The notes under the pieces were generated by a model. It was not told the DNA's origin, did no database searches, and saw nothing but the letters and a program-made list of their open reading frames with translations. From contig JANOGW010000049.1 in assembly GCA_031406155.1 (NCBI GenBank), positions 582 to 64,581 on the forward strand: a DNA stretch of 64,000 nucleotides. Reading direction: 5' to 3'. Below are positions 4,241-42,814 of the stretch, in pieces. The stretch's first letter is position 1, and each line of letters starts with the position of its first letter. The DNA is from Pseudorhodobacter sp. (GTDB taxonomy: Bacteria > Pseudomonadota > Alphaproteobacteria > Rhodobacterales > Rhodobacteraceae). The translations under genes were made by a program, and so were the position numbers.

Positions 4241-4279
4241 CAGTGGCCTTCTGGCCGGACAAGCGTCACGGGCGCGGCT

Positions 4280-4873
4280 TTACGGGCGCGGGCGCAGAAG
4301 TCGCCAGCTGGCGGTGATGATCAAAACCGGGCAAAGCACCTCCAACGTCGTGGTCAGACCATGCAGAAAAATATCTGCAGTCCCTTGATCCGGAACGAAA
4401 ATATGCAGAAGGTGTCCGGCGCGGATCAAAACGAAACCGGCAAGTGCTGCCAGGCCCAAAAGCGGCAGCAGGTTCTGGCGGACGGTGCCGCGCAGGATCC
4501 AGAACATTGCCGCGCACGCCAGCGCTGCCACAACGATCAGGCCAAAAACGAAGTCGCGTTGCACGATGCGGCGGTTTTCGTACCAGCCCTGTTGCTGAGC
4601 AAGGCAGCGGCCAAGGGCGGTCAGCAGCGATTGCAGATCAAGTTGCTTGTTAACGGCCAAAGCCGCCATCAACAGGGCAATCAGGCCCCAGAACACCTGC
4701 GTCTGCCGACGATGCGGGGAGGAGAAAGTCACTCGCCGCAGCACAATCACTGCCGTTGCGAAGGCCAGCGCATAGGCGGCAAAAACCGCCCATCCCGTTA
4801 TGTTCGGGTCCCCTATGACCAGCTGCCAGCGGTCGGATACACAGGCGGAAAAACGATCATGGGAAAAGGCCAT
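4280..4873 (-). CDS. Hypothetical polytopic membrane protein
   Basis: 197-aa ORF with about five hydrophobic helices. It fills the gap between flanking genes. No recognisable catalytic motif. Confidence 0.5.
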   Translation of the reverse strand: MAFSHDRFSACVSDRWQLVIGDPNITGWAVFAAYALAFATAVIVLRRVTFSSPHRRQTQVFWGLIALLMAALAVNKQLDLQSLLTALGRCLAQQQGWYENRRIVQRDFVFGLIVVAALACAAMFWILRGTVRQNLLPLLGLAALAGFVLIRAGHLLHIFVPDQGTADIFLHGLTTTLEVLCPVLIITASWRLLRPRP

Positions 4874-5052
4874 TGGGGGTCTATTCTGGGTCTAATTGTG
4901 CCGGATTGCTGCCCTCATCCGGGCGTCTGGATCGGTTCGGTTTTTTGTTTTATCGCGTATAGCCGCAACGGGCTGGTAATATCAAAGCTTTCCATGGCAG
5001 GAACGCCACGGGTTTTCAGGATGTGGTCTGATCAAGGGTAAACGGGGACAAG

Positions 5053-15400: not shown

Positions 15401-16843
15401 ATCTATCTTGGCCGCGCCGACCATCAGGTCAAGATCCGGGGCGCGCGGGTTGAACTGGGCGAGGTCGAGGCAGCTCTGGCAGCGATGCCAAGCGTTGCCG
15501 AAGCCGTCGCCGTCGCCCGCCCCGATGCGGATGGTGATCTGACATTGCTGGCCTTTGTCACCCTGCGGCCGGGCAGCACTGCTGACCCGCTGGCCCTGCG
15601 TGCGGCACTGGCGCAAAGCCTTCCCGATTACATGGTGCCCTCGCGCGTTCTGGTGCTTGACCAGATGCCGCTGAACCCGAACGGCAAGACTGATCGCATG
15701 GCGCTAAGCCTGCGCCCGGCGGAAGGCCAAGGTGACAGCGCCCGCACCAATTGGCCAGTGACCGCGACCGAGCGGGACTTGCGCGATATCTGGGCGCGGC
15801 TGCTGGATCAGCCCGAGATCGGGATGGAGGACGACTTTTTCGAACTGGGTGGCCATTCGCTGCTGGCGGTCAAGCTGTTCACCCAGCTGCGCCGCAGCTT
15901 TGGCGTGGATTTGCCGATCTCGACCCTGTTTGCCCATCCCACGATCCGCACGCTGGCACGCAAACTCGGCACCAGCAGCGAAACTCCGCCAAATACCAGC
16001 TATTCCGGCACGCCCGAAGACAGCCCCTGGGATACCACGACGGTGATCCACCCCGGGCCCGCGCTTGCAAGACCCCCCCTGTTCATCGTCGGCGGTGTTG
16101 GCGGCAACGTGAACAACCTGATCAGGCTCGGCCGCCTGCTGGGGGCTTACCGCCCAGTCATCGGCCTGCAGACGCGCGGCATCCTAGGCCACCGGATGCA
16201 TGAGACGATCGAGGCCACGGCCGCGGATCATCTGACCAATATCCGCCGCCATCAACCGCAGGGGCCCTATCTGCTGGCCGGTTATTCGGGGGGCGCGTTC
16301 ACTGCGTTCGAGATGGCGCGACAATTGCGGGCCGCGGGCGAAGAGGTGGGCTTTCTTGGCCTCCTTGATACCTTCGCGCCGAAATTCGTCTTCCAGAAAC
16401 ACGGCTCCAAACTGGACCGGGTTCAGTATATGACCAAGCTGGTCCTGCGGCATGGGCCGGGGCCGCTTTGGACCAATGCCATGGCCTGGCTGCACAACAA
16501 GACCACCGCAGGGGCGGTGCTGCAAGCCGGTGTGCCAACCCCGTCCGAGAAATACCGCTATAGCCATCTGGCCCGGCAATGGTGGAAGATATCAACGATT
16601 TATGACCCCGCCCCCTATGCCGGCGATGCGTGGCTGTTCCTGACAGAATCTGAAAAAGATGGCTTTTACGCAACCCAGCTGCGCAAGAGCGATCCGAATT
16701 ACGGCTGGCCAGGGTTCATACGCGGCCAATTGCGGGTCAGCCGGCATACGTCGGATCACCTGAGCATGCTGACCGGAACCGCCGTCCAGGACCTTGCCAA
16801 CATGATCGAGGCCGAGATCCTGCACGCGAAACAAGGGACGTAA
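6479..16843 (+). CDS. Hybrid NRPS-PKS megasynthase: A-T-KS-AT-ACP-AMT-C-A-T-TE
   Basis: 3454-aa ORF; domains are read from core motifs. NRPS start: A (YTSGSTGVPKG ~6950, NGYGPTE), T (FFDLGASSL ~8110). PKS part: KS (CSTSLVAV, HGTATPLGD, GHLDIAAG; ~8310-9600), AT (GQGAQ, GHSIGE, HAFH; ~9880-10800), ACP (LGFDSL ~11130). Then a class-III aminotransferase (~11400-12745). NRPS end: C (HHIVCDG 13262-13282), A (YTSGSTGTPKG ~14670), T (GGHSL ~15850), TE (GYSGG ~16285). Start is TTG 6479 or ATG 6494. Confidence 0.95.
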   Translation: MVAFAMLRILPLFQDVTRAFQGAVKNHAPAVAVVQGSVQISYADLDRLSDVLADRLIKAGVASGSLVGLAATQDPGTIISILAILKAGAGYVPLPGYYPEARLRVIAQDAGLALILGSVPALVEMTIPQTSFDWQSCTETTSPSLPTLDGEAVAYVMYTSGSTGVPKGVVVPHRAILRLVQGQNFMALGPDERILQNSAIAFDAATLEIWGALLNGGTLVMPEETSGSLSALGEVIRDQRITSMWLTAGLFHAMADTRPGDFAPLRQLLTGGDVVSPACVAKVMAACPGLTVINGYGPTENTTFTCCHTITRAEAELGMSLPIGRPISGTDVFVLDANLAPVPAGEPGELFAAGEGLALGYLGRADLTAEKFIAAPWDADVTLYRTGDLVRQDAKGVVHYLGRIDTQVKIRGFRIELGEVEAALEATGGISQAVVVARAGADHADKMLVAYCVAGDALDEGTLRASLGARLPDYAVPSRFVTLPALPLNSNGKVDRRALEALALPKAAKPAKPATSTHSLEEMIAGQLATALGIDESDLDRSANFFDLGASSLHVARVHDGLQTALDRRFPISDFFLHSTIAAMATHLGKPAKAAGPVILAPKKDRSDTGLIAIIGLAGKFPGARSAEEFWDGLVAGREMISQFTPEELDIDLSKGDAGAGFVNARGVMPDADMFDARHFNIPPREAERMDPQHRILLEVAQTALDSAGHDPAQFAGKIGIYAGSSQNSYLLNNLLSAPGASRAYAASYPLDDFATLFGNDKDFIATRIAYKLNLRGPAATVLCACSTSLVAVAQGCESLLSGTSDMVLAGGVSVTFPSKRNYKYMPDGMASADGHCRTFDADATGTVFGDGAGLVVLRRLEDALADGDTVIAVIRGYSINNDGSEKAGYAAPSIKAQAAVIQAAHLAAGVNAREIGYIEAHGTATPLGDPIEFAALHAAFSASTDARGFCALGSAKTNVGHLDIAAGITGLIKAALTLQHGVIPPLLHYKAPNPRMDFANSAFYPVAKLTDWPRGGVPRLAGVSAFGVGGTNIHMVLQEAPQVAVVESAAPHGPQVYPVSASSPEALKAAVAELGAWAAANPKADAGAVRATLRRGRHAYNERAVLVADGMAGLAQAAQGFAGKSTTAGRRDAVAFLFPGQGAQHVGMAKALFDAEPVFREALSLCTTLLKPALGLDLLDVIHAPDNLREQMTARLKDTSLAQPAIFSIGYALAKQWDHWGIRPDVMVGHSIGEFAAATIAGVIDLPDALGLIALRGRLMADLPDGVMVSVRASEQELQPYLGAGLDLAAVNGAKACVLAGSEEAAAALLPTLEAAGFVTSRLHTSHAFHSYMMEPAVAPFRAAVAKIKLRAPKIPILSTVIGDWLTEQEATDPDYWAGHMRRPVRFYDAMQTLWAEGRHIFLETGPGRTMATLAGQNPDRRRAQPALASLPHAQAENADAHLSMLEAFGGLWASGYPVDWSRLEGDGPEPHRAAGLPTTPFQRKRFWVEPTDVGTAPAAAIALEAAPAADQITAPVPQISAADALRDMLSDLSGVEPAEMDGGASFLELGFDSLLLTQATRELSERFGVTVTLRQLIDGFPTIDTLAAHIDAHGNLAGRAPADRTPLAEMTRIEGREEEAEATPSSAPMTRISRETEELTPAQRGHIDALVARYTAKTAKSKALTAQYRGVHADPRTASGFNRLWKEIVYQIVTVKSKGSRLIDVDGNEYIDILNGFGPGFLGHAPEQVVSALHSQLDAGFEVGPQSLAAMEAAALFCEVTGNDRASFVCTGSEAVYAAMRLARTCTGRDRIVMFARDYHGNFDEVLVRGIDGKDGPRSLPMAPGIPRDSVKNVVVLPYGSPQALDYIRRNADTIAAVIVEPVQSRRPEFRPAEFIREVRRITENAGSVFIFDEVVTGFRFGPRGAQGYYGVDADLVTYGKVVGGGMPVGVVSGKARFMDTFDGGPWQYGDDSFPQAPVTFFAGTFVRHPLAMAALKAMLTFFKTQPDFFWKTVNAKGDRLAGTVDRWFADNDMPFQMPNCGSLMYLRIGEDQKYGGLLGAGLRDRGVFMLEGFPSYMTAAHDDEDIDHVIDAVKDTALEMRAAGLLVGRGAVAYDGPHLHLAPPRLTLPGGEAAIAAAMRAPLGTLSVPTTEAQREIWAAMIVTPDLAPAYNESVTLKLHGVIDRDLLRAAAQTVFRRHDALRSTFSEDGMEMHIQPDTAIDASLIDLSDLTAEDQAGTLARLLAQEVETPFDMVSGPFVRAHLVAFGPTHHHLIITAHHIVCDGWSIDVVMRDIGKVYAAGLEGRTPLLPPAQSIVDYARVEAEWSRSAEATAAREYWLGQFANQPPVLDLPTDHPRPPVKTVRGARADRVIPAALADQLRALGRTQGSTFVNLLLAAYKIYVARQAQVSDIVIGLPASGQAARGMPGVVGHCVNLLPIRTQIDWDKGFGSYLTVVRRAMLDALDHQTYTYGELIRSLRIARDPSRVMLVPVIFNIDNGIDLSTMSFGPVTTDFVTNPRAYEHFELYLNVTDAPGDVHTEWSYNADLFDAATIEAHIDRFVRLLGELIEDPGQPLGEISLLSRDERQKLLVDWQGKRVDTPQEATLATLFADRVAKNPDAIALIEGETGLRYSQLDAMVGDLAAQLQDRGVGRGDIVGICMERSMRMVAALLATMRLGAAYMPLDPSNPADRLRHILADSSTRFVLTTEDLANRHGFADPIIPSATGSHPAPVTAAVPAEIAYIAYTSGSTGTPKGVMGTHRATINRFAWMWREFPFSPADVMCQKTALSFVDSVWEIFGPLLAGVPQVIIPNDKLRDPAAFLALLGKHRVTRLLVVPSLLKSILDVGIDLGAVAPSLQLLFTSGERIPATLARQMLAAAPQVTLVNLYGSSEVAADVTCEVVHNVSTEEVPIGRAIDNARLYVLDAARHLMSPGEAGELYVGGDVLAAGYLHRPDLTAERFLPDPFADTPGARMFATGDRVRHLADGRLIYLGRADHQVKIRGARVELGEVEAALAAMPSVAEAVAVARPDADGDLTLLAFVTLRPGSTADPLALRAALAQSLPDYMVPSRVLVLDQMPLNPNGKTDRMALSLRPAEGQGDSARTNWPVTATERDLRDIWARLLDQPEIGMEDDFFELGGHSLLAVKLFTQLRRSFGVDLPISTLFAHPTIRTLARKLGTSSETPPNTSYSGTPEDSPWDTTTVIHPGPALARPPLFIVGGVGGNVNNLIRLGRLLGAYRPVIGLQTRGILGHRMHETIEATAADHLTNIRRHQPQGPYLLAGYSGGAFTAFEMARQLRAAGEEVGFLGLLDTFAPKFVFQKHGSKLDRVQYMTKLVLRHGPGPLWTNAMAWLHNKTTAGAVLQAGVPTPSEKYRYSHLARQWWKISTIYDPAPYAGDAWLFLTESEKDGFYATQLRKSDPNYGWPGFIRGQLRVSRHTSDHLSMLTGTAVQDLANMIEAEILHAKQGT
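11400..12745 (+). other. Integrated PLP-dependent class-III aminotransferase (AMT) domain inside the megasynthase (approximate borders)
   Basis: GSEAVYAAMRLAR, IFDEVVTGFRFG and TYGKVVGGG (putative PLP lysine codon at 12245-12247). This is the same layout as glutamate-1-semialdehyde-aminomutase-like AMT domains of MycA/ItuA-type synthetases. Confidence 0.8.
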
Positions 16844-16847
16844 CACG

Positions 16848-17657
16848 ATGACGGCGATGGGCCCCAGCCGTTTGCCGATCCGTGCCGCAGACATTGGCGT
16901 GGCGCAGTGCCGTCTGGGGGATGACCGCGACATCACCCTGAGTGCTGCCTGGGCGCTGTTGTCGGCGGATGAGATCACACGCGCGCACCGCTTTCATTTT
17001 GACCGTGATCGAACTCGTTATGTGCGGGGGCGGGGGTTTTTACGCCAGATGCTGGGCCAGGTCTGCGGACAGAACCCGGCAAGTTTGATTTTTGGCACGG
17101 GCGCGCGGGGCAAACCGTTTTTGGCAGGCAGCAATCTGGGCAGCGATCTGGCCTTCAACCTGTCGCACAGCCGCGATCTGGCCGTTCTGGCCATCTCGCA
17201 AACCGGGCCTTTGGGGATTGATGTCGAATTTATCGACCGCAGCGCAGATCTGGCCGGGCTGACCCAAAGCTGCATGACCCCCGCCGAGGCCGCGGTTCTG
17301 GCAGCCCTGCCCGCAACCGAACGGCCTGCACGGTTCTTTGCGTTCTGGACGGCAAAAGAGGCCCGCATGAAACTGACCGGTGAGGGGATGTCCCTGGCCC
17401 CGCAGCAAATTGCGCTGGATTTGCGGGACGGTGTTCCAGTAGGCTATCTGCACCCCGGGACACCGGACGTGCAGGCCGTTTTTCTTGATCTGGGACATCC
17501 CCTTGCCCAGTGCTGTCTGGCGTTGGCACGGGGTCCCCAACCCGTTATTATCCCTCTTATTGCCACGACCCCCGTTATTATCATCACCAGTCCCCCTGTT
17601 ACGGAGTATGCGTATTTTGGCTCATTCGAGAGACACCATCAAACTTCTGGCCGGTAA
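16848..17657 (+). CDS. Sfp-type 4'-phosphopantetheinyl transferase
   Basis: GKPFL, FNLSHSRDLAVLA, GIDVEFI and FWTAKEARMKLTGEG motifs. It starts 5 nt after the megasynthase stop. The last ~40 codons look like read-through into an A/T-richer spacer. Confidence 0.85.
   Translation: MTAMGPSRLPIRAADIGVAQCRLGDDRDITLSAAWALLSADEITRAHRFHFDRDRTRYVRGRGFLRQMLGQVCGQNPASLIFGTGARGKPFLAGSNLGSDLAFNLSHSRDLAVLAISQTGPLGIDVEFIDRSADLAGLTQSCMTPAEAAVLAALPATERPARFFAFWTAKEARMKLTGEGMSLAPQQIALDLRDGVPVGYLHPGTPDVQAVFLDLGHPLAQCCLALARGPQPVIIPLIATTPVIIITSPPVTEYAYFGSFERHHQTSGR
17541..17582. repeat. Two perfect 12-bp direct repeats CCCGTTATTATC spaced 30 bp apart
   Basis: Copies at 17541-17552 and 17571-17582, with a degenerate third copy (CCCTGTTACGG) at ~17594. 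They lie just upstream of the GGAG/ATG (17608) of the methyltransferase gene. Confidence 0.9.
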
Positions 17658-18528: not shown

Positions 18529-19341
18529 ATGATGTCTGCCTTACGCAACTATGAGGTTTGGTGGTTTTTGGGCCTGATTATCGTGGCCAATGCCGTGTTT
18601 GTGTCGGGGATAGATTTTGGTATTCTGCCGGACAGACTTTATTCCTATGGGCGCTTTGCCTTGCTGGCGGGGGTGTTGGGCGGCATCGTATTGCTTGCCC
18701 GTGGCTGGGAGGGGATTGCAGATCTGTTGCGCCCGATGCTGCAATGGCAACGCTCGGTGGCATGGTATCTGTTCGCCTTTCTATGGAACCCGGTGATTTG
18801 CTTGCTAGTCCTGATGGCACTTCATACCCTGCACCCCAGCTCCATGTCGGAATTCAAGCCTAACTTTGCCATCGCATTACGGCCCGACATCATCAGAACC
18901 GTGCTCATCGGATCTTTCATCGGTGAAATCGTCTGGATCAGCTATGCAATCCGGCGTCTGTCGATCAGCTTCACCCCCTATGTTTCAGCCCTGATCGTCG
19001 GTGTTGTCTGGACGGCATGGTGGGTGCCGATGGTGTTTTACAATATCGGCATCGTGCCTGACCTGCCGATAGCAGCGCTTTTGTTCAACCAGATCGGCAT
19101 CGCTGCAATGTGCACCTTTGTTTACATGCACACCAGAAGCGGATTGCTGGTGTTGTGCCTGCAGGTAACGTTCAACTTTACGATCCTGGTGTTGCCCGTC
19201 ACCCCGGCGGTGGGCGGTTTCACCACCTATTGGACTTTTGCCGTCACCTATTTCATCGCAGCGCTGTTGCTTTTTGTGGTTTTCGGGCCAAAACCGCTGT
19301 TCACCGCACCGGTGCGCAGTGGCAGCCCGACACAGGCCTGA
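18529..19341 (+). CDS. Polytopic membrane protein, possibly a degenerate CPBP/Abi-family (CAAX-protease-like) protein
   Basis: 270 aa with ~7 hydrophobic helices. FVYMH (FxxxH-like) is followed by LQVTFNF where CPBP proteins have HxxxN, and only a single E appears in the GEIVW segment. The gene is visibly A/T-richer than its neighbours. Confidence 0.5.
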   Translation: MMSALRNYEVWWFLGLIIVANAVFVSGIDFGILPDRLYSYGRFALLAGVLGGIVLLARGWEGIADLLRPMLQWQRSVAWYLFAFLWNPVICLLVLMALHTLHPSSMSEFKPNFAIALRPDIIRTVLIGSFIGEIVWISYAIRRLSISFTPYVSALIVGVVWTAWWVPMVFYNIGIVPDLPIAALLFNQIGIAAMCTFVYMHTRSGLLVLCLQVTFNFTILVLPVTPAVGGFTTYWTFAVTYFIAALLLFVVFGPKPLFTAPVRSGSPTQA

Positions 19342-19418: not shown

Positions 19419-19600
19419 GTGCCCGCCCAAACTTCGGTGCTGCATATCCACGTTGATGATCACCTCAAAGCCAAGGCGGCGCTGGCCTTGGGAAGGGGTG
19501 GGCCTGACCCTGTAGGATGCCGTTCGCATTCTGCTTGCCCATGTAGCCGCCGACGGGGGAATGCCCGCTGGGCTAACCGCCAATCCGGATGCATATGACA
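19419..19600 (+). pseudogene. Decayed RelB/DinJ-family antitoxin gene (frameshift plus in-frame stop)
   Basis: From GTG 19419 it reads VPAQTSVLHIHVDDHLKAKAALALGRG. After a +1 shift in the G-run ~19495-19501 it reads GLTL*DAVRILLAHVAADGGMPAGLTANPDAYD, with a TAG at 19513-19515. The 3' border is approximate. Confidence 0.5.
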
Positions 19601-19888
19601 GCCGGGCCCGTTCTTCAGGGACGCTCAACTGCAATTGCCGACCTTCTGGCTACTGTCGATTACATCGCGGACGATGATCAGGCCACCGCACAAGCGTTGA
19701 GAGCCGATGTGGCTGCCAAGGCATCTTGTCTGGCTGACAGCCGCGGGCTTGCCCGTACAGGGCGGATAGACGGCAGGCGGGAAATGGTGGTGCGGCACAA
19801 CTACATTGTTTACATTGTTGTTAGCGCCGAGGATGACAGCACTTTAACCATCCTTCAGGTGCTGCACGCAGCGCAACAATGGCCATAA
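19589..19888 (+). CDS. parE: ParE/RelE-superfamily type II toxin
   Basis: 99-aa ORF with AIADLLATVDYIADDD near the N-terminus and the C-terminal LTILQVLHAAQQWP signature typical of ParE toxins. It appears uninterrupted. Confidence 0.7.
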   Translation: MHMTAGPVLQGRSTAIADLLATVDYIADDDQATAQALRADVAAKASCLADSRGLARTGRIDGRREMVVRHNYIVYIVVSAEDDSTLTILQVLHAAQQWP

Positions 19889-19979: not shown

Positions 19980-20050
19980 CCTTGGTGCGTTTCTAAAACC
20001 TACTCCTTTTACCTTGGTTCAGTAGGCTCTATTGGTCTTCCTTGGTGCGT
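19980..20050. promoter_or_regulatory. Candidate operator/promoter repeats: CCTTGGTGCGT x2 plus a CCTTGGT half copy
   Basis: Perfect 11-mers at 19980-19990 and 20040-20050, 60 bp apart, with CCTTGGT at 20012-20018. The last copy ends 24 nt before ATG 20074. Confidence 0.4.
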
Positions 20051-20073
20051 CCTCTCAGTCCAGAAGTGTTGCA

Positions 20074-23000
20074 ATGAAGTCCATATTTTGCGGGAACGGA
20101 TCGCTTCTCATTCAATGTGCAGAGGCGTTTTTGCAGGCTGGCGGGCAGCTGCTTGGCGTGATCACTGCCGATGCGCAGATCGCGGCCTGGGCGGCGGCGC
20201 AGGGTATACCGCATCTCGGGCCGCCTGAGGCGCCCGATCTGGATGGCGTCCACTTTGACTGGCTGTTTTCTGTCGCCAACCTGACGGTTCTGCCAGCGGC
20301 GCTGATTGCAAAGGCCACGCGGGGGGCGATCAACTTTCATGACGGTCCGTTGCCCGAGCGCGCCGGTCTGAACGTGCCGGTCTGGGCGATACTGGACGGG
20401 GCTACGACCCACGCCATCACCTGGCATGACATGCTGGCGGCGGTGGATGCGGGCGCTGCCCTGAAGGTGCGAACGTTTGATATTCGGGATACCGACACCG
20501 CCTTCAGTCTGAACGCCAGTTGCTACGAGGCGGGGTTGGACAGTTTCCGCGACCTGCTGGCCGAGATGCAGGCGGGCCAGGTGGTACGCCAGCCCCTGAC
20601 CGGCCCTCGCGGCTGGTACGGTCGTGCCAAGCGGCCCGAGGCGCTGGCGACATTGAATTTCAGCCACACCATGGCGGGTCTGGACCGGGTGATGCGGGCG
20701 CTTGATTTTGGCGGTTATGCCAACCCGCTGGCTATCCCGAAACTATGGACCGGGCAGGCGCTGTTGGCGGTTGCGCGGCTGGACATGGTGCCGGGTATGC
20801 CGGGGCCTGCAGGGCAGGTGCTGCGGGTTGACGGCGCTGGCCTGCTGGTCGGCACCGCCGATGGTGCAGTGCGGCTGTCCGGGCTGATGGATATGGCTGG
20901 CCGGGCGGTGGATGTGGCGACCCTTGGTCTTGCGCGCGGGCAGACCCTGCCTGAAATCCCGACAACAGATACAACAGCCATCGGCAAGGCCGAACCTGTC
21001 TGGGAAGCAGCTCTGCTGGCTGCCACCCCCGCCATACCACCCTATCCGGTGGAGCATGCCGCAGGCCATGGCACCGTGTCCGCCCCGTTCGATGCGCATG
21101 GTGCCAGCCAAGACACCGTGCTCGCCGCCTATATGGCGTGGGTGTGCGGGCTGACCGGGCAGGATCATGCAACGATTGCCCTGAAGGGCCCGGAGCCAAC
21201 CGCGCCCTATCTATCCGCGCTGCGCCCGATCAGCTTGGGCGTGGATGCGGCAGCCATCCCGCGCAGCCTGACGGCCATGTTGGCCACAACCCGTGATGCC
21301 GCCCTTGGCCTGGCCCCGATGGCCGCCGATCTGGCCTTGCGCATTGCCCATCCGGAAACCCGCGCCCACGCCCTGCGGGCGTTAAGCGTCGTCCACGCCG
21401 GGAATAACGGTGATGATGCCCTGGCCTTGGGCAGTGCCGATCTGGCAATAGCCGCTGACCCCACTCGCCTGATCACCCGGACAGGGGTTTTCGCCCCGGC
21501 GACACTGCAAGCCATGGCAGCGGCGTTTGAGGCCTATCTTGCCGCCTTCACCGCCGCCCCTGATACGCCCCTTGCCGACCTGCCACTCGGGACGGGTACA
21601 GTATTGCAAGGGCCAGCCCTGCCGATTTCCCCCTCGCGCATCCATGAGGCGATTGCCGCCATGGCGGCCAGAACCCCCGACGCCCCGGCGCTGGAGGCGG
21701 GGTCAGTCCGGCTGAGTTATGCCGAGCTGGATGCACGCGTCAATGATCTGGCGGGGGCGCTGGTCGCACGCGGTGCCGGCCCCGGCAAGGTTGTCGGCCT
21801 GTGTCTGGAACGATCTGCCGATCTGATCATCGCGATGCTGGCGATCCTGAAAACCGGGGCTGCCTATCTGCCGCTGGACCCCGCCTATCCGGTGGACCGG
21901 CTGACCTATATGGTGGAAGACGCTGGTGCGCCTTTGATCGTGGCCAGCCGCAAGGCGGCGGCTGATCTGGGTCTGGACCCCAGCAAAGTGGTATTCCCCG
22001 ATGCAACCGGAGCATTGCCCGCCAACCTGACCGGCAGCCCTGATGATCTGGCCTATCTGATCTATACCTCCGGCTCCACCGGCAGGCCGAAGGGCGTGAT
22101 GATCCCGCACCGCGCGGTCAGCAATTTCTTTGTCGGCATGGACGCGGTGGTGCCTTTGGAACCCGGCGCGCGACTGCTGGCGGTGACATCGGTGTCGTTC
22201 GACATCTCGGTGCTGGAAATTCTGTGGGTCTTGGCGCGCGGGGCGACGCTGGTCTTGCAGACCGACGGGCCGCAAACAGGCACCATGCCCGATTTCTCGC
22301 TGTTCTATTTCTCGTCCGAGGCGTCAGGCAGCGGGCATCATGCCTACCGGCTGCTGCTGGAAGGGGCGAAGTTCGCCGATGCCAATGGCTTTGCCGCGAT
22401 CTGGACGCCGGAACGGCATTTCCATGCTTTTGGCGGGTTATATCCCAATCCCGCAATCAGTTCGGCAGCACTGGCGGGCATCACCAAGAATGTAAAACTG
22501 CGGGCGGGATCGTCCGTCGCACCGTTGCACCACCCGGTGCAAGTGGCCGAAGATTGGGCGCTGGTCGATAACCTGTCGAACGGGCGGGCCGGCATGGCGA
22601 TTGCGTCGGGCTGGCAGCCCAATGATTTCGTGCTGCGGCCTGAGGCGTTTGCCAAGCGCAAGGATATCATGCTGGAGACAGTCACCACCCTGCGCCGCCT
22701 GTGGGCGGGGGAATCCCTGCCGTTCCCCGGCCCGGATGGCAAGCCGGTGATGGTGGAAATTCACCCCAAACCGATGCAAAAGCCCATTCCTTTGTGGCTG
22801 ACAGCCGCAGGCAACCCCGAAACCTTTGCCGCCGCCGCGCGTCTTGGCTGCGGGGTACTGACGCACCTTCTGGGCCAGACCTTCGAGGAAGTGGAAACCA
22901 AGATCGCCGCCTACCGCGCGGCATGGCGGGCCGCGGGCCATGCCGGCCAAGGCCATGTCGTGCTGATGCTGCATACCTTTGTGGGCCAGGATGAGGAACA

Positions 23001-24507
23001 AGTGCGCAGCGTCGCGCGCGGGCCGATGAAAGGCTATCTGAAAAGTGCCGTCGATCTGGTGCGCCGCGCTGCCTGGACCTTCCCGACGATTGTGAACCGC
23101 GCCGATAGTGCCGGGGTAACGCCGCAGGAAATGTTCGAGAAAGAGGCGCTGTCACCGCAAGATCTGGATCAGTTGCTCGATCACGCGTTTGAGCGGTATT
23201 ACCAGACCTCGGGTCTGTTCGGCACGCCGGACTCGGCGAAAGACATCGTGCGCCGGGTGACGGAAATTGGCGTCGATGAAGTGGCCTGCCTGATCGATTT
23301 TGGCATTGATACCGATCTGGTACTGGAAAACCTGCCCAATATCAAAGCCTTGATGGATGGTTTGCAGGCAGAGGGCGGCGTTGCCCGCAAGGTCAGCGTG
23401 GCCGATGATGTGGTCATCAAGGCGATTACGCATCTGCAATGCACGCCCTCGATGGCAACGTTTCTGCCCGGCACCGGGGCTTTGGCGCAACTCGATTGCC
23501 TGATGGTGGGCGGTGAGGCGTTTCCGCCCGATCTGGCGGCAGAGATGCGCGCAGGCCTGAAGGGGCGGCTGCTGAATATGTATGGGCCGACCGAAACCAC
23601 GATCTGGTCATCGGTGGCAAACCTTGATGCGGTGGGGGATAAAATCCCGCTGGGCGCACCGATTGCCAATACTGTGCTATCGGTACGATCCCCCGATGGC
23701 CGTGCCGTGCCCAACATGGTCGAAGGCGAGTTGTGGATTGGCGGGGCAGGGGTGGCGGATGGCTATTGGCAGCGCCCCGATCTGACTGCCGAGCGCTTTG
23801 TAATGGCGGATGGCATGCGGTTCTACCGCACGGGTGATCTGGTGCGCCGCGCGTCGGGTGGCACGCTGGAATTTCTGGGCCGCATCGACAACCAAGTGAA
23901 AATCCGCGGCCACCGGATTGAGCTGGGCGAGATTGAAGCCGCCTTGCGTGCCACTGATGGCATCCGTGACGGCGTGGTGCATCCTGTCACCTTTGGCCCC
24001 GGCGATGTGCGGCTGATCGGCTATGTCACCGGCAAAGGCACCGACCCTGTGGCCTTGCGCGCCAAACTGGCCGAAACCCTGCCCGAGATCATGGTCCCTG
24101 CGCAGATCGTCGTGCTGGACCGCATGCCGCTGACGCCGAATGGCAAGATCGACCGCAAGGCGCTGCCGAAACCGCTGGCCGAGGCCGCCGCGGATGTGGT
24201 TGCCGCCGCCGATGATACCGAAGCCACCATTGCCGGCATCTGGGCCGCGGCTTTGGGGGTGAAAACAGTCTCTACCACTGCCAATTTCTTTGATCTGGGC
24301 GGCCATTCGCTGCTGGTGGTGCAAGTGCAACGCCAGATGCGCGATGCGCTGTCGCGTGACATCGCGATTACCGATATCTTCCGCTTCCCAACTGTACGCG
24401 CACTTGCCGCTCATCTGGGCGATACAGGGGCAGAGGGCCGCCCTGATGCCGCCAGTCGCGGTGTTGCAAGGGCCGCAGCACGACTAGCGCGAATGGGGCG
24501 GCGGTGA
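20074..24507 (+). CDS. NRPS module: formyltransferase-like domain, partial C-like region, A domain interrupted by a luciferase-like monooxygenase, T
   Basis: Start taken at ATG 20074 (MKSIFCGNG). Fmt-fold motif NFHDGPLPERAG (20332-20367) plus VDAG. A ~190-aa stretch (~21050-21620) resembles only the C-terminal half of a C domain and has no HHxxxDG. A cores are YTSGSTGRPKG (~22066) and FDISVLE. The LLM insert follows (~22285-23360), then NMYGPTE (~23575) and GRIDNQVKIRG. T has GGHSL (~24300). Confidence 0.9.
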   Translation: MKSIFCGNGSLLIQCAEAFLQAGGQLLGVITADAQIAAWAAAQGIPHLGPPEAPDLDGVHFDWLFSVANLTVLPAALIAKATRGAINFHDGPLPERAGLNVPVWAILDGATTHAITWHDMLAAVDAGAALKVRTFDIRDTDTAFSLNASCYEAGLDSFRDLLAEMQAGQVVRQPLTGPRGWYGRAKRPEALATLNFSHTMAGLDRVMRALDFGGYANPLAIPKLWTGQALLAVARLDMVPGMPGPAGQVLRVDGAGLLVGTADGAVRLSGLMDMAGRAVDVATLGLARGQTLPEIPTTDTTAIGKAEPVWEAALLAATPAIPPYPVEHAAGHGTVSAPFDAHGASQDTVLAAYMAWVCGLTGQDHATIALKGPEPTAPYLSALRPISLGVDAAAIPRSLTAMLATTRDAALGLAPMAADLALRIAHPETRAHALRALSVVHAGNNGDDALALGSADLAIAADPTRLITRTGVFAPATLQAMAAAFEAYLAAFTAAPDTPLADLPLGTGTVLQGPALPISPSRIHEAIAAMAARTPDAPALEAGSVRLSYAELDARVNDLAGALVARGAGPGKVVGLCLERSADLIIAMLAILKTGAAYLPLDPAYPVDRLTYMVEDAGAPLIVASRKAAADLGLDPSKVVFPDATGALPANLTGSPDDLAYLIYTSGSTGRPKGVMIPHRAVSNFFVGMDAVVPLEPGARLLAVTSVSFDISVLEILWVLARGATLVLQTDGPQTGTMPDFSLFYFSSEASGSGHHAYRLLLEGAKFADANGFAAIWTPERHFHAFGGLYPNPAISSAALAGITKNVKLRAGSSVAPLHHPVQVAEDWALVDNLSNGRAGMAIASGWQPNDFVLRPEAFAKRKDIMLETVTTLRRLWAGESLPFPGPDGKPVMVEIHPKPMQKPIPLWLTAAGNPETFAAAARLGCGVLTHLLGQTFEEVETKIAAYRAAWRAAGHAGQGHVVLMLHTFVGQDEEQVRSVARGPMKGYLKSAVDLVRRAAWTFPTIVNRADSAGVTPQEMFEKEALSPQDLDQLLDHAFERYYQTSGLFGTPDSAKDIVRRVTEIGVDEVACLIDFGIDTDLVLENLPNIKALMDGLQAEGGVARKVSVADDVVIKAITHLQCTPSMATFLPGTGALAQLDCLMVGGEAFPPDLAAEMRAGLKGRLLNMYGPTETTIWSSVANLDAVGDKIPLGAPIANTVLSVRSPDGRAVPNMVEGELWIGGAGVADGYWQRPDLTAERFVMADGMRFYRTGDLVRRASGGTLEFLGRIDNQVKIRGHRIELGEIEAALRATDGIRDGVVHPVTFGPGDVRLIGYVTGKGTDPVALRAKLAETLPEIMVPAQIVVLDRMPLTPNGKIDRKALPKPLAEAAADVVAAADDTEATIAGIWAAALGVKTVSTTANFFDLGGHSLLVVQVQRQMRDALSRDIAITDIFRFPTVRALAAHLGDTGAEGRPDAASRGVARAAARLARMGRR
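22285..23360 (+). other. Luciferase-like FMN monooxygenase (MOx/LLM) domain inserted between A-domain cores A4 and A5 (approximate borders)
   Basis: FSLFYFSSE...YRLLLEGAKFADANGFAAIWTPERHF...LRAGSSVAPLHHPV...GRAGMAIASGW is typical of the LLM fold. It sits between FDISVLE (A4) and NMYGPTE (A5). Confidence 0.8.
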
Positions 24508-24548: not shown

Positions 24549-27500
24549 ATGAGTGACGATTTTACAGACACTGGGGCGCCCGACAACCGCATCGCCATCA
24601 TCGGCCGTGCCGGGCGTTTTCCCGCCGCGCGCAATGTGGCCGAGTATTGGGATATGCTGCAATCGGGGCGGCGGGCGGCGTCGAAATTAAACGAGGCTGA
24701 CCTATTGGCGGCGGGCGTCAGCCGCAAAATGCTGGCCGACCCGACCTATGTGCGCGAAGCCAATATCCTGCCCGATATGGAATGCTTTGATGCGGGCTTC
24801 TTTGGCTTTTCGCCACGCGAAGCCTCGATCCTCGACCCCCAGCACCGGCACTTTCTGGAAACCGCGTGGGAGGCGTTTGAGGACGCAGGCCACATGCCCG
24901 AAAACTTTGATGGCCGAATCGGGGTTTATGCAGGATCAGGCATGCAGGCCTATTTGCCGTTCAACCTGCTGTCGAACCCTGCGCTGGTTGAAGAAATCGG
25001 CCTGTTCCTGCTGCGCCACACGGGCAATGACAAGGATTTTCTCACCACCCGGCTGTCGTACCTCATGAACCTGACTGGCCCGTCGGTGGCCGTGCAAACC
25101 GCCTGTTCCACCTCGCTTGTCGCCGTGCATATGGCCGTCAATTCGCTGCTGAACATGGAATGCGAAATGGCGATTGCGGGGGGCGTCACCATCGAGCTGC
25201 CGCACCGCGTCGGCTACCGCTTTGCCGAAGGTGAGATCCTGTCGCCCGATGGTCTGTGCCGGGCGTTTGATGACGAAAGCCAAGGCACCGTGTTCGGGTC
25301 TGGCGCCGCCCTTGTGGTGCTGCGTCGTTACGCCGATGCGGTTGCTGACGGCGATGATATCAAGGCGGTGATCCTTGGCACGGCCATCAACAACGACGGC
25401 GCGGGCAAGGCAAGCTATCTGGCCCCGTCCGTCGATGGCCAGGCCGAAGCGGCAGCCGAAGCTGTGGCGCTGGCAGGTGTGACGCCGCAATCCATCAGCT
25501 ATATCGAAGCACATGGCACCGGCACGCCGATCGGCGATCCGATCGAACTGGCCGCCCTGCAGCAGGTCTATGGCAAGGCCCCGAAAGGCAGCATCGGCAT
25601 CGGGTCGGTGAAAACCAATATCGGGCATCTGGATACTGCCGCTGGCGGTGCCAGCCTGATCAAGGTGATCGAGGCGATGCGGCACAAGCATCTGCCTGCC
25701 AGCCTGAATTTCAAGACCCCTAACAGCCGCTTTGATTTTGCCAAAAGCCCGTTCGAAGTGGTGTCCAAAGGTCGTGATTGGCCTGCAGGCCCCACCCCAC
25801 GCCGTGCTGCGGTTAATTCGCTGGGTGTCGGCGGTACCAATGCGCATGTGATTGTCGAAGAAGCGCCCGCGCGCGCCAAAACTAACAGCACCGACGGCTG
25901 GAGGGTCTTCCCGTTCTCGGCCAAGACACCATCTGCACTGGCCCGCACAGGTGACAAATGGGCGCCGTTCCTGGCCTCTGATACGCCCGATCCTGCCGAC
26001 ATCGCCTTCACTCTGCGGACTGGACGCCGGGCGTTTCCCGAACGTATGGCCGTTGCCGCACGTGGCCCCGATGATCTGGCCGCAGCGCTTACCGCCAAAG
26101 CCTCGGCCTATCTGCAAAAGGGCAAGGCTGGGGCCACACCCCCCAGCATCGTATTCCTGTTCCCCGGTGGTGGTGCGCAATATCCCGGTGCCGGGGCTGG
26201 CATGCTGGCGCAGTCCCCCGCCTTTGCCAAAGCGGTGGCCGATTGCTTTGCGGCGCTACCCAAAGACGCCCCCGCCGATCTGCACGAGGTGATGTTCGCC
26301 CGCACGCTGGAAGATGCCGAGGCGCGCGGCAAACTGGGGCAGTCCGGCTATGCCATCCCGGCGCTGTTCATTCTGGAATATGCTTACGCCAAGCATTGGC
26401 AAAGCTGGGGCATCACCCCCGATGCGATCCTTGCCCATAGTGTCGGCGAATATGCGGGCGCTGTCACGGCGGGTGCGATGAACCTGTCGGATGCGCTGCG
26501 CATCGTCACCCTGCGCGGTCAGGTGATGGATGCCGCGCCAGCGGGTGCGATGACCACTGTGCCGAAATGCGCGCCAGCCGTGCAGGAAATGCTGGGCGAG
26601 CACTTGGACATCGCCGCCATCAACATGGCCGAGGCAACCGTTGTGTCCGGCCCCTTGGCCGTGATCGAGGCGCTAGAGGCACGGCTGGCAGATACTGATC
26701 ACGCCGCACGCCGCATTCATATTGATGTGGCAGCACACTCGCGCCAGTTGGACGGGCAGTTGGACCGGTTCCGCGCCGGATTTGACGGCGTGCGCTTTGG
26801 CAAACTGACAGTGCCGATGGTGTCGTCCTTGCGCGGTGACTGGGCGCAGGATGATGACATTACCTCGGCTGACTACTGGGTGCGCCATCTGCGCCATACC
26901 GTGCGCTTTACCGATGCCATCGCGGCCACCTTTGCGACCGACAACCGGATCGTGATCGAAGTCGGTCCCGGCCAGACGCTTGGGCCGCTGGTCGATATGG
27001 CAAGTCTGACCCATCGCCCGGTGGCGATCCTGCCCTCAGCCCCGCGTCCGCGCGATGGAACGGATGAAATGGGCGTTGTCAGTGCCGCTTTTGGTGGGCT
27101 TTGGGCCAACGGCGTGCCCGTGGATTGGGCTCTGCTGCACGGTGCCGAGGGCCAGCGCGTATCGCTGCCTACCTATGCCTTTGAAAAAGAGCGGCACTGG
27201 GTGGAACCCGGTCGCGGCGCTGTGTCCGAAGACGCAGCAGAAGCGACCCCTGATCTGACCCGGATCCCGGATATGGCGGATTGGGTCGAAGTGCTGGACT
27301 GGGATATCGCAGCACGGTCCGGGGCAAGCCCTGATCTGCGCGGCAATTGGTTGGTTCTGGCAGGCGCGGAGGCGTTGTCATCCGCTGTATTGGCCAGGTT
27401 GGAGCGCGCCGGAGCATCAGTGACCGTGCTGCGTGCGGGCGCTGGTTTTTCGGCCACATCTGACGGCTTTACCCTGCGCCCCGATGCCACCGAAGATTTT

Positions 27501-30500
27501 GAGGCACTGGCAGCAGCCCTGCCTGCCATTCCGGCCCGTGTCCTGTCACTTTGGGCGCTCGATCCGGCCTTGTCAGACACTGTTTTCGATGCGGGCTATC
27601 TGCTGGCGCGCATGCTGCAGCAAGTGGATGCAGGCGCTGATACGCATCTGGTATTTGCTGCATCAGGGACTGTTTCAGCAGCGGGCGAAGCCATTAACAA
27701 CCCCCTTGCCGCAAGCCTGCTAGGGCCAGTGCGTGTTGGCCCGCGTGAAATTCCGGGGCTGACAGCGGCGCTGGTTGATCTGGCAGGTTTTGAGGGCGAT
27801 GCCCAAGCGGCCGAAGCCCTACTGGCCGAGGCGGCTGGCCCAACCGGCAATGATCATGTGGCGTTGCGCGGTGCCGATCGGTACATCCGGGCCCGTACTG
27901 CAGTGGCGGCACCGCTTCCAGACACGCTGCCACCCCGGCTGCGGCAAGGTGGCGTCTATGTGATCACCGGTGGAGTGGGCGGCATCGGGCGGCAAATGGC
28001 GCTGTGGTTGGCGCAAGCCGCCAGGGCGCGACTGGCGCTGATCTCGCGCAGCGCCAAACCTGATACCAGCTTTGAAGCCGCGATTATAGACGCCGGGGGT
28101 GAGGTGATCTTCCTCGCCGCTGATGTCACCGACTCTGCCGCGATGGAAACGGCGCTGGCTGCTGTGCGCAGCCGCTTTGGCGCCATCCACGGCGTGATCC
28201 ATGCGGCAGGCCTTTTGCACGATGCACCGCTGTCGGTAAAGCCGCTGGCCGAAGCGCAGGCAGGCATGGCCCCCAAGGTGAAGGGTGCCCGGGTGCTGCA
28301 CGGATTGCTGGCCGAGGGCACAGTTGATTTCTTCGCCGTCATCTCGTCGTCCTCCGTGATCATCGGCGGGGCGGGGCAGACCGATTATGTCGCCGCCAAT
28401 GCGGTGCTGGAGGCAGTTGCAGCCTCGCGCCGCGACGGGCTGTCCATCGCCTGGGGGGTGTGGCGCGATACCGGCATGGCGGCCCGGATGTACGGCGCAG
28501 GCGACAGTGTTGCCCCCTTGGGCAGTGATAGCCTGCTTGGCATGCGCCATGACGCTGCCGATGGCACCACGCATTTCGAGACGGTGATCGACCCCGATAG
28601 TGACTGGCGTGTCGCCGAACATGTGGTTGCAGGCCAACCTGTGCTGCCCGGCACGGCTTACGTGGAAATGGCCTATGCCGCCGCGGTTGCTGTGCTGGGT
28701 CAGGCGACATTCGAAATTCACGCCTTGTCGCTGGCCATACCGATGGTCTTTGACACTGGCCTGCCGCGCCGGGTTCTGGTGCATCTGAGCCCGGTGCATA
28801 ATGGGTTTGAATTGACCATCGAAAGCATATCCGGCCCAGCAGATGAGCCGCTGGAACATGCCCGTGCCCAGATCAAGATATTCCGCTATGAAGATCGCCA
28901 ACTGCCCGAAGGTATGGCCGATCCGGTTGCACTGGCTCCGGCCCCGCGATCTGGCCATGCCCCGCAAGAGGTGTTGATCGCCTTTGGCCCGCGCTGGAAA
29001 AATGTGGGTGCTGTGCGGATTAACGGCGATATTGCCGAAGGCGTGTTCACTCTGGCCCCGGATTTTGCCAGTGATCTGGCTGATCATCCGCTGCATCCGG
29101 CCCTGCTTGACATGGCCGCCACAGTGGGGCTGCATTGCCTGGCTGATGGCGGCGCAGGCGACGCGGTTTATGTTCCGATGTCAGTGGACCGGATTCGGGT
29201 GTTGCACCCTTTGCCGATGTCACTTGTCGCGCGCGCCCGGCGGGTGGCAGGCGAAGAGGGCAAGTTTACCGCCTTTGATGTGGTGATTTCCACACCTGAT
29301 GGCATTGATCTGATGGTGCTTGAACATCTGGCGCTGCGGGCCGTGTCGGGCGGGACATTGCAGACCGAACCGACCCCTGTCAGCCTGACCGGTCAGTTAC
29401 TGGCAACAGGCATTCGCACCACCGAGGCCGCGGATCTGCTGGCCCGGGTCTTCGCCCACCCGGCACGCGCCCTTGTGGTATCGCCAGTGCCGCTTGATCT
29501 GGTGCGTCTGGCGATGACAGAAGGCCTCCGTCCGGTGGTTGTGGGGCAAAAACGCCAAGGCGGCAGTGGTGGGGCCATCGCTGATCCGGTCAGTGCACGC
29601 GTGGCCGCGATCTGGGGCGAAATTCTGGGTATTGACGCCGTTGGAGCGGACGATGATTTCTTCGCGCTTGGGGGTCATTCGCTGAATGCCGTGCGGATGT
29701 TTGGCCGGATCCGCAAGGAATTTGGCCATAACCTGCCGCTGGCAACCCTGTTCGAGGCGCCACGCGTCAGGGATCTGGCAGCTGTTTTGAAAGATCACGG
29801 CGTCAGCATTGCTGTACCTGCCGAAGTGGCAGCCCCGCTCGCAGCACTGCCCCCGCTGGTGCCCGCCACCCCAACCAGCCCACAGATCCTGACGGCCCCG
29901 CGCCAGATCGAGATGACTGAGGCGCAACGCGAAATTGCAACCGCGATCCTGATAAACCCCGACAGCTCGTTGTCCTACAATCTGTCCTTCAGCCTGCATA
30001 TCAAGGGCAAGCCAGACCCCAAGGCTCTGCAAGCAGCCCTTGACGGGGTCATTGCTCGGCATGACAGCCTGCGCGCTGGTTTCGATGTGGAACGGTTTAT
30101 CCTGACCATCCGGCCCACAGCCGAAGTGCCGTTGCAACTGGCCGATCTGATCGGCCTCCCTGCGAGCGAACAGTCCGTCAAACGGCACAACTTGCATGAA
30201 ACCATCGCTGGACAGGCCTTTGATCTGATCCAGGGGCCGGTAATCCGGGCTGTGCTGGTGCACCTGTCGGAAACCCGCCATGAACTGATGCTGTTCGTGC
30301 ATCACATAGCTTGCGATGGCTGGTCGATGGGCGTCGTAATGCAGGATCTGGCCGCGCTTTATTCTACCGCAGCGGGCGGATCAGCCGCCCCGCTAGACCC
30401 TCCGGGCAGCATCGCAGACCTGCTGGCGGCAGAAACCACCTGGGCAGGATCGCACGACGCTGCGGCGCATCGCGATTACTGGCTTCAGACCTTTGCAGAT

Positions 30501-33891: not shown

Positions 33892-34710
33892 TCACTCGAC
33901 CTGGTTGTCGAGGAAATCTTTCATCACCCCAATCAGGCCATGCGCCGCCAGATTGGCATGGCCCCCGCCGGGAAGGGCTGCAAAGGCCTTTGGGGCAGGG
34001 GCGACAGCAAAAAGCTGTTGCCCCCAGGCAAGCGGCACATCCATGTCCGCCGTGCCGTGAACAAACAGTTTTGGTGCAGAAATCCGTTCTACCCGGTCAA
34101 TCACATCATAGCGTTCCGCCCACATCAGGGCACAGAATGGAAGGCCGCGATAGCGCCTTTGATAGTAGACACAGGCACGTGGAAAACTGGCTTCCAGCAC
34201 CACGGCGGCAAAAGGCCGCTCGACCGCCAGACGACTGCCAACGCCGACCCCCAGACTGAAGCCATGCACAGCCCGACGGCTTTGCGCAATTGTCTGCCCG
34301 GCCAGCACGTCCAGTTGATCATAAAGCGCGCGCGCATCGCGGGCGAAGTTTTCCTCGGAGGGACGGCCCGGCATACCGCCACCACCCCGATAGTGCAGCA
34401 TGACGATGCCGGTGCCATCCGCGATCAGCGGGGCAAGCCGCTGCATTGACGGACCTATGGCAGAAAAATTTCCGTAAAAGCTGAACAGCATCGGCTTTCC
34501 CGGGGCTGGCACCGACAACCAGGCCTGCACCGGAGCACCGTCTTCCGAACTAAAGCCCACCACCTTGACCCCAGCCAAGCCAACGGCTTCGGGCGATTGC
34601 GCGGTCTGGTCAAAGCGATAGATCCCGTAAGTCTGAAAGGCCCAGATGCCGCCCGACAACAGCGCCAAGGCAAGGGAAAAGGCCGCAAGGCTGATTTGAA
34701 AGCTCGTCAT
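33892..34710 (-). CDS. Alpha/beta-fold hydrolase with N-terminal signal/anchor helix
   Basis: N-terminal hydrophobic LAAFSLALALLSGGIWAF and nucleophile elbow HGFSLGVG (GxSxG). A C-terminal HGTADMDVP...GGGH fits an Asp/His triad arrangement. It is convergent with the PKS-NRPS gene across a 28-nt gap. Confidence 0.7.
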   Translation of the reverse strand: MTSFQISLAAFSLALALLSGGIWAFQTYGIYRFDQTAQSPEAVGLAGVKVVGFSSEDGAPVQAWLSVPAPGKPMLFSFYGNFSAIGPSMQRLAPLIADGTGIVMLHYRGGGGMPGRPSEENFARDARALYDQLDVLAGQTIAQSRRAVHGFSLGVGVGSRLAVERPFAAVVLEASFPRACVYYQRRYRGLPFCALMWAERYDVIDRVERISAPKLFVHGTADMDVPLAWGQQLFAVAPAPKAFAALPGGGHANLAAHGLIGVMKDFLDNQVE

Positions 34711-36878: not shown

Positions 36879-36954
36879 TCCGCCCCGGTTCCCGCTGGAT
36901 ATCCCCCAAACAGCCCGAGATTCGTTTCGTGGTTTTAGTGACACCACGCTAGAG

Positions 36955-36963
36955 TTATCCACA
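36955..36963 (+). promoter_or_regulatory. Perfect consensus DnaA box TTATCCACA
   Basis: Read directly. It lies 23 bp from the first iteron, upstream of the initiator gene. Confidence 0.6.
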
Positions 36964-40782: not shown

Positions 40783-40843
40783 ATGATAGGGTGGCGGGAA
40801 ATTGCCGTATCCCAATCGCCGGGGTACTAAGGCGCCACCCCCT

Positions 40844-42811: not shown

Positions 42812-42814
42812 ATC

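Follow-up and report, generated by a model that had tools for sequence, protein, structure and literature searches.

A predicted glycine-loading initiation cassette with formyltransferase and flavin monooxygenase domains in a widespread NRPS-PKS cluster family

Several described assembly-line systems resemble the protein examined here, a 1477-aa nonribosomal peptide synthetase (NRPS) encoded at positions 20074-24507 of a 64,000-nt stretch of Pseudorhodobacter sp. DNA (contig JANOGW010000049.1), which is referred to as the window. MtaG and MelG are modules with the order condensation (C)-adenylation (A)-monooxygenase (MOX)-A-carrier (T)-thioesterase (TE), for which hydroxylation of an N-acyl-glycine at Cα has been proposed. 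The resulting N-acyl-α-hydroxyglycine is proposed to dealkylate, giving an amide and an α-keto acid that is released by the TE (PMC11411415). Loaders with the order formyltransferase (F)-A(Gly)-peptidyl carrier protein (PCP), which pass N-formylglycine to a ketosynthase (KS), are known from the biosynthesis of conglobatin, oxazolomycin and rhizopodin, where they were either characterised or assigned (PMC4504003). The F domain of LgrA acts on a carrier-bound aminoacyl group, and CongA and OzmO are proposed to do likewise for glycine (PMC4504003, PMC8949500). Also, a four-gene NRPS/polyketide synthase (PKS)/glycosyltransferase/phosphopantetheinyl transferase (PPTase) cluster with an uncharacterised product was reported from 28 of 57 Roseobacter genomes in 2015 (PMC4337385), and in 2023 the same cluster was the commonest unknown biosynthetic gene cluster, found in 18 of 37 Rhodobacteraceae (PMC10584327).

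The protein in the window joins an F domain, the C-terminal lobe of a C domain (Cc), a Gly-type A domain split by a luciferase-like monooxygenase (LLM) and a T domain. Judged by its motifs, it is an intact, predicted glycine-loading enzyme with a formyltransferase and a flavin oxygenase, and all catalytic and cofactor-attachment motifs were kept. It is not a singleton: it is the NRPS starter of a large and widespread cluster family that is common in marine Roseobacter. We give even odds (a probability of about 0.5) to its being the initiation cassette of a small NRPS-PKS line, in which glycine would be loaded, formylated, oxygenated at Cα and passed to a KS.

Domain architecture of the predicted loader

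The open reading frame (ORF) spans 20032-24507 on the forward strand, and its first ATG, at 20074, gives the 1477-aa protein and agrees with the N-termini of homologues. A Pfam/TIGRFAM scan of the protein matched Formyl_trans_N, AMP-binding (in two pieces), Bac_luciferase, TIGR04020, AMP-binding_C and PP-binding, which recovered the domains that the original prediction had read from the letters, apart from Condensation, for which there was no Pfam match at E ≤ 0.01. Residue conservation was counted over 76 full-length family members, which span Alpha- and Betaproteobacteria, Acidobacteria, Chloroflexi and Bacteroidota. The mean frequency of the major residue was highest in the LLM (0.69), intermediate in the F region (0.60 and 0.52) and lowest in Cc (0.37).

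The F domain (aa 1-295, 20074-20958, forward strand) was assigned a catalytic N subdomain and an OB-like C subdomain from PF00551, PDB and Foldseek matches. Formyl_trans_N matched aa 67-153 at 30.3 bits against a cut-off of 26.1, and phmmer against the PDB aligned aa 59-285 to WbkC, Met-tRNA formyltransferase (Fmt) and ArnA with E-values of 1e-9 to 1e-8. The motif NFHDGPLPERAG lies at aa 87-98 and a VDAG motif at aa 124-127. In the PDB alignment, Asn87 (nt 20332-20334), His89 (nt 20338-20340) and Asp125 (nt 20446-20448) fell on the catalytic Asn, His and Asp of WbkC/Fmt. An AlphaFold2 (AF2) model of aa 1-539, built from 38 homologues, had a pLDDT of 92 and a pTM of 0.85. Foldseek matched this model to Fmt/ArnA over about 305-320 columns (E 1e-21), which shows that both F subdomains are present. 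All 76 members, from several phyla, kept Asn87 and Asp125, and 72 kept His89; Asp90, Pro94, Gly98 and Gly127 were invariant as well. The expected N-terminal Fmt fold was found by Pfam, by the PDB alignment and by structure comparison, and the Asn/His/Asp triad in the PDB alignment.

Behind F lies Cc (aa 296-515, 20959-21618, forward strand), which was recognised through AF2, Foldseek and hhalign. The AF2 model of aa 296-539 had a pLDDT of 93.4, and its 50 best Foldseek matches were exclusively of the condensation family (among them Txo1, TomB, LgrA, the starter C domain of RzmA and a glycopeptide X domain; best E 8.5e-9). The TM-score was about 0.6 relative to the query and about 0.35 relative to stand-alone C domains, indicating that Cc is about half a C domain. 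With hhalign against the window's own C domains, aa 348-417 aligned to columns 254-330, downstream of the HHxxxDG motif at column 138, and the HHxxxD motif was absent from the whole protein. The earlier claim of a half C domain that comprises the C-terminal lobe and lacks HHxxxDG therefore stands, although its size is about 220 aa and not about 190. Since Pfam did not match Cc and tblastn with this segment found it in 5 of 84 related loci (the set used for all neighbourhood and colinearity counts below), structure prediction was required for its identification. In one relative, P0270, the Pfam Condensation model did match directly before the A domain (profile positions 402-456). Its predicted structure and its conservation, the lowest in the protein, suggest that Cc probably serves as a scaffold without catalytic function, placed between F and A. 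It is not a peculiarity of this protein, since it also occurs in F-loaders that have no LLM.

The N-terminal part of the A domain, with cores A1-A4, covers aa 516-730 (21619-22263) and the C-terminal part, with cores A5-A10, covers aa 1107-1375 (23392-24198), both on the forward strand. The first AMP-binding piece matched aa 530-733 in Pfam, and both NCBIfam and the alignment to GrsA place the start of the second near aa 1107. To read the specificity code, the A domain was aligned to GrsA with the LLM excised; the GrsA sequence gave DAWTIAAICK at the Stachelhaus positions, and this validated the numbering. The code obtained was DILQMGMIWK, identical at 8 of 10 positions to the canonical Gly code DILQLGLIWK, and the DILQLGMIWK of relatives was identical at 9 of 10. 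The code was read as DILQ[M/L]GM[I/V]WK in 69 of the 76 members, and the other seven were single substitutions at the fifth position only. A Gly-type code one or two substitutions from the classic one had been expected, and the alignment agreed. Dimodular LgrA was the top PDB match and was set aside as evidence for Gly specificity, since its score adds two A domains.

The LLM (aa 731-1106, 22264-23391, forward strand) sits between FDIS of core A4 (aa 709-712) and NMYGPTE of core A5 (about aa 1164-1170), where the original prediction had placed it. TIGR04020, the MupA/Atu3671 family of natural-product LLMs, matched the insert at 489 bits against a cut-off of 244, over profile positions 1-340 of 341. 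Pfam Bac_luciferase matched aa 748-1069 (E 2e-48), and the nearest solved structure was the LLM of PuwE (PDB 6ket, 358 bits). The insert in MtaG itself presumably occupies the same A4-A5 position. A literature search on TIGR04020 and Atu3671 found no paper. Fabrubactin biosynthesis reportedly uses a related LLM on glycine, which was not taken as evidence here. LLMs of the TIGR04020 family in PKS/NRPS lines have been assigned α-hydroxylations on bound intermediates (PMC8739492).

The last segment (24199-24507, forward strand) holds the T domain, matched by PP-binding at aa 1385-1448, and a conserved Arg-rich C-terminal tail. The phosphopantetheine-bearing serine is Ser1412 (nt 24307-24309) in an LGGHSL motif and was Ser in all 76 members. 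As had been read from the letters, no TE follows: Pfam found none in the protein, which stops at aa 1477 after T.

Partner gene and cluster family

A KS-first gene begins 41 nt downstream of the loader gene. It encodes a 3104-aa protein with the Pfam domain order KS-acyltransferase (AT)-ketoreductase (KR)-dehydratase (DH)-acyl carrier protein (ACP)-C-A-T-TE (24549-33863, forward strand). Its KS Cys/His/His residues were intact, the DH motif HxxxGxxxxP was present, KR carried an LHD motif, and its A domain had the Val-like code DTIWIGGVTK. The two genes were in the same order in loci L001-L004. The Arg-rich tail of the loader reads RGxARAAARLARxGRR (24400-24507), and an acidic stretch, MSDDFTDTGAPD, opens the KS protein (24549-24590). 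These two ends may form a docking pair between the proteins.

The protein search gave 653 scored matches. The 120 that were listed were 1460-1535 aa long, except for one fragment of 1002 aa, with a query coverage of 97-100% in nearly all cases, and all except two carried the set Formyl_trans_N, AMP-binding, Bac_luciferase and PP-binding. They came from Rhizobium, Phenylobacterium, Rhodobacterales, Ramlibacter, Caenimonas and Bryobacterales; among the matches listed, Pikeienuella and Rhizobium sp. GN54 were the nearest named relatives, at about 63-64% identity. The Ramlibacter homologues carry the submitters' NCBI name "MelG-like". A scan of one genome per species confirmed at least 517 stretches, some possibly counted twice since two patterns were used, and the best 80 of these came from many genera of the Roseobacter group, Sneathiella, Hyphomonas, Methylobacterium, Comamonadaceae, Acidobacteria, Chloroflexi and Salinivenus. 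A phmmer search with aa 1-515 against 1.84 billion cluster representatives found 1,099 clusters at 50% identity with E ≤ 1e-30. The order F, N-terminal A, LLM, C-terminal A and T was colinear in all 84 loci, with a constant 520-590 aa from the start of F to the start of A. The combination had been put forward as a rarity, a view that does not survive these counts or the earlier recognition of the Roseobacter cluster (PMC4337385). Megablast of the loader gene against the PLSDB plasmids found only patches of 42-173 nt in other NRPS/LLM genes.

Across the 84 loci, KS-AT was present in 68, KR-DH in 67, TE in 60-66 and a PPTase in 52, and a GT2 glycosyltransferase lay between the genes in 41. In most relatives the line ends KS-AT-KR-DH-ACP-TE. 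The window has the minority long form, with an added C-A-T module; the extra C domain was found in only 6 loci. In Ramlibacter tataouinensis the order is PPTase, homologue, KS-AT-KR-DH-ACP-TE and FtsX permease. Phenylobacterium and Rhizobium sp. GN54 have the long form, with a KS...C-A-T-TE protein of 3.1 thousand aa and a convergent hydrolase. In Roseovarius sp. 217 the order is GT2, Wzx-like flippase, PKS, GT2, NRPS, PPTase, Wzz and a BY-kinase-like gene. The cassette was also found in Comamonadaceae, Rhizobiales, Caulobacterales, Acidobacteria and Chloroflexi.

Variant architectures were seen as well. The cassette F-Cc-A<LLM>-T was fused to a KS in P0129, to a C domain in P0165 and to T-TE in P0202, and P0270 carried an extra methyltransferase. 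P0184 had F-Cc-A-T-KS... without an LLM. Two metagenomic proteins began with a full C domain: P0197 (C-F-Cc-A<LLM>-T) and P0190 (C-F-Cc-A-T-C-A-T-TE, without an LLM). These variants indicate that F-Cc is a broader loader design to which the LLM was added, and that the cassette is portable, since its acceptor can be a KS, a C domain or a TE. The only neighbours of P0202 were a radical S-adenosylmethionine gene and a hexapeptide transferase gene; no PKS or NRPS was found on its 10.8-kb contig.

Proposed reaction sequence and competing explanations

In the sequence that we favour, the A domain would adenylate glycine and load it onto Ser1412 of T. F would then move a formyl group from N10-formyl-tetrahydrofolate (formyl-THF) onto the glycyl amine, in the manner of LgrA and CongA/OzmO; N-formylation is expected since glycine has no other nucleophile. 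F would take the place of the catalytic N-lobe in the C domain of an ancestral MtaG-like module and supply the N-acyl group that the lost lobe once supplied, and the kept C-lobe would preserve the surface on which the carrier docks as well as the C-A platform. The embedded FMN monooxygenase would next oxygenate the N-acyl-glycyl thioester at Cα, giving N-formyl-α-hydroxyglycyl-S-T. The Cα position is favoured by analogy with the MtaG/MelG proposal (PMC11411415) and the α-hydroxylating LLMs of the same TIGR family (PMC8739492). The unit would reach the KS either intact, as a hemiaminal that could be a site of glycosylation, or as glyoxylyl-S-T after loss of formamide. One malonate extension, reduction and dehydration would give an enoyl thioester, and in the long form of the window this enoyl unit would be joined to one aliphatic amino acid before TE release. 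A role as loader for a downstream KS had been suggested earlier; the gene order fits it, with KS-AT or KR-DH adjacent in 67-68 of the 84 loci (KS-AT in 68) and the KS and DH motifs intact, and the chemistry itself is inferred only. Since the line is linked to GT2 genes in most relatives, the final product is probably glycosylated or tied to a cell-surface glycan.

Several observations weigh against this sequence. The F domain is distant from the one NRPS F domain with biochemical proof, that of LgrA (phmmer E 0.1-0.5); Fmt, ArnA and the sugar N-formyltransferases are closer to it in sequence (E 1e-9). The features of LgrA-type F domains, homology to LgrA and direct fusion to A, were not found in it: a C-lobe of about 220 aa lies between F and A. 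His89 is replaced by Phe (NFFDGPLP) in all four Sneathiella members (L008, L009, L011 and L012), with the Asn and Asp kept, so in this clade formyl transfer may be dispensable, lost or altered. The C domain ahead of F in P0197 and P0190 shows that the F-Cc unit need not open a line, and it is hard to square with simple α-N-formylation in those proteins. Also, the sequence cannot reveal which position is oxygenated, and P0202, under MtaG chemistry, would yield only formamide and glyoxylate.

A stable N-hydroxy product would suit P0202 better, and this leads to the main competing explanation, in which the LLM N-hydroxylates glycine and F formylates the hydroxylamine. The carrier would then hold N-formyl-N-hydroxyglycine, the hadacidin unit, a retro-hydroxamate like that of fosmidomycin, which the PKS would extend to a small acid that binds metal or acts as an antimetabolite. 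Formyl-hydroxamates are usually made by N-hydroxylation and then N-formylation, as in siderophores with N5-formyl-N5-hydroxyornithine and in hadacidin of fungi, and a protein such as P0202, with no PKS or NRPS beside it, makes sense if the product of the cassette is stable. However, no flavoenzyme of the LLM fold (class C) is known to act as an N-hydroxylase, the PuwE LLM is the solved structure nearest to the insert, and the context of P0202 comes from a single metagenomic contig that ends in an insertion sequence element. We regard a formyl-hydroxamate loader as rather unlikely. Similarly doubtful is a special case of the favoured sequence, with which it has all its evidence in common, namely that the formyl group only primes glycine for the oxygenase. 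Here the hemiaminal would collapse on the carrier, formamide would leave, and the KS would extend a glyoxylyl (2-oxoacetyl) unit to a 4-oxo-2-enoyl electrophile. The dealkylation proposed for MtaG/MelG (PMC11411415) speaks for such a traceless handle, as the architecture is identical from the C-lobe onward. On the other side, spending formyl-THF only to discard formamide would be wasteful, and N-acyl-α-hydroxyglycines are fairly stable at neutral pH. The GT2 found in 41 of the 84 loci also suggests that the hydroxyl is kept for glycosylation.

The idea that F is a mere structural cap or that the LLM is inactive, so that the starter would be plain glycine, formylglycine or oxidised glycine, appears very improbable. 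It draws on the weak Pfam match of F (30 bits, over half of the profile only), on the Phe in place of His89 in the Sneathiella members and on the canonical SLLP...RG motif of formyltransferases, which reads GPLP...AG here. Yet the six invariant F residues (Asn87, Asp90, Pro94, Gly98, Asp125 and Gly127) hold across several phyla, and the F region, at 0.60 and 0.52, is far better conserved than the Cc scaffold at 0.37. The LLM is the best-conserved part (0.69) and matches TIGR04020 end to end at twice the cut-off.

Beyond the initiation role, we suggest more tentatively, and at less than even odds, that the cassette makes a starter without a characterised precedent, an N-formyl-α-hydroxyglycyl, glyoxylyl or N-formyl-N-hydroxyglycyl unit, that it arose when the catalytic lobe in the C domain of an MtaG-like module gave way to a formyltransferase, and that the product is the long-sought metabolite of the Roseobacter cluster, probably glycosylated or linked to the cell surface. 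If this is true, it concerns the metabolite of a cluster present in about half of the sequenced Roseobacter genomes and in hundreds of other species. The domain-level reading narrows the product of the conserved Roseobacter NRPS/PKS to a few candidate masses and labelling outcomes. It would also provide a natural example of module evolution in which half of a C domain was swapped for another acyl-transfer catalyst.

Surroundings of the cassette and comparison with known systems

Other genes of the cluster lie on both sides of the two synthases. An Sfp-type PPTase (16848-17657, forward strand; Pfam ACPS/AASDHPPT_N) is of a subtype found in 17 of the 84 loci. A conserved 270-aa protein of unassigned function (18529-19341, forward strand), which may serve in immunity or processing, is a neighbour of the NRPS in L004 and L005 too. 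It had no Pfam match and only faintly resembled intramembrane proteases of the CPBP/Rce1 type (NCBIfam E 0.008, PDB 4cad E 0.1). A convergent α/β hydrolase (33892-34710, reverse strand) travels with the long form, in the same place in L002 and L003 and in 6 of the 84 loci overall. Upstream, at 6479-16843 on the forward strand, is a second TE-terminated hybrid line, A-T-KS-AT-T-aminotransferase-C-A-T-TE, with the codes DALWLGGTCK (first A, Val-like) and VDWLFSLADK (second A, β-Ala-like). It is followed by the PPTase and a methyltransferase, and the entire upstream block is shared with L004, a metagenomic relative of 90% identity.

The 733-nt gap before the loader holds a 99-aa ORF for a ParE-family toxin (19589-19888, forward strand; PF05016, 35.7 bits). 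Upstream of it, 19419-19600 resembles a RelB/DinJ-type antitoxin broken by a stop codon. Since the same gap is only 294 nt in L004, this toxin-antitoxin module looks recently inserted. Directly after the cluster come an RPA-family replication initiator (35808-36962, reverse strand) and a ParA-like ATPase (37289-38677, forward strand), suggesting that the window is probably on a plasmid or chromid. Polysaccharide-type flanks at 812-6294 and 39790-47905, both on the forward strand, include GNVR/Wzz-like, BY-kinase-like ATPase, GT2, FrhB-like and second GT2 genes, and also hold an ABC/HlyD/OEP export set and a β-helix (NosD-like) protein. These flanks recall the GT2, Wzx, Wzz and kinase genes that surround Roseobacter homologues such as that of Roseovarius sp. 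217. No GT2 lies between or beside the loader and its partner in the window; the nearest are at 3365-4240 and 39790-40782. Rfam at gathering thresholds had no match anywhere in the window.

The loader is colinear with the NRPS of the Roseobacter cluster; with that of Roseovarius sp. 217 (L024), for example, its regions share 45-53% identity. Its partner likewise has the PKS layout KS-AT-KR-DH-ACP...TE, and a PPTase is nearby. In contrast to that cluster, the window has an extra C-A-T before the TE, the convergent hydrolase, no inter-gene GT2 and, upstream, the second TE-terminated line.

The likeness to MtaG/MelG of the myxothiazol and melithiazol pathways lies in a Gly A domain split by an LLM of the natural-product family and followed by T, and in the proposed oxygenase substrate, an N-acyl-glycyl thioester (PMC11411415). 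The analogy drawn in the original prediction held with respect to the Gly code, to the family of the LLM and to the splitting of the A domain, but not for a functional C domain with HHxxxDG or for a terminal TE. The loader has only the C-terminal C lobe, with an Fmt-type domain in the place of the catalytic lobe, and it starts a line and feeds a KS, whereas the MtaG/MelG module ends its line.

LgrA, which had been named as the precedent for the F domain, is like the loader in that its initiation module opens with a domain of the Fmt family (PMC4504003, PMC8949500). It differs in that the F domain of the loader is parted from A by the C-lobe, and in the substrate, which is glycine here and Val in LgrA. 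The F-A(Gly)-PCP loaders of the OzmO/CongA type are a closer precedent, and the loader resembles these and the rhizopodin loader in its N-terminal F, Gly A domain, carrier and handover to a malonate-adding KS (PMC4504003). Unlike in the loader, no oxygenase within the A domain has been reported for the OzmO/CongA type. Those loaders work with a cyclodehydratase, OzmP/CongE, which forms an oxazole. Among the scanned ORFs of the window, Ramlibacter and Roseovarius clusters there was no PP-loop-type ATPase, and KR and DH would remove the ketone that is needed, so an oxazole pathway of this type was rejected for the loader.

A literature search for a fusion of a formyltransferase, an LLM monooxygenase and a half C domain in NRPS/PKS systems found nothing relevant. 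The formyl-Gly loader and the oxygenase-split Gly A domain are each known, and it is their combination that is new in comparison with the characterised systems.

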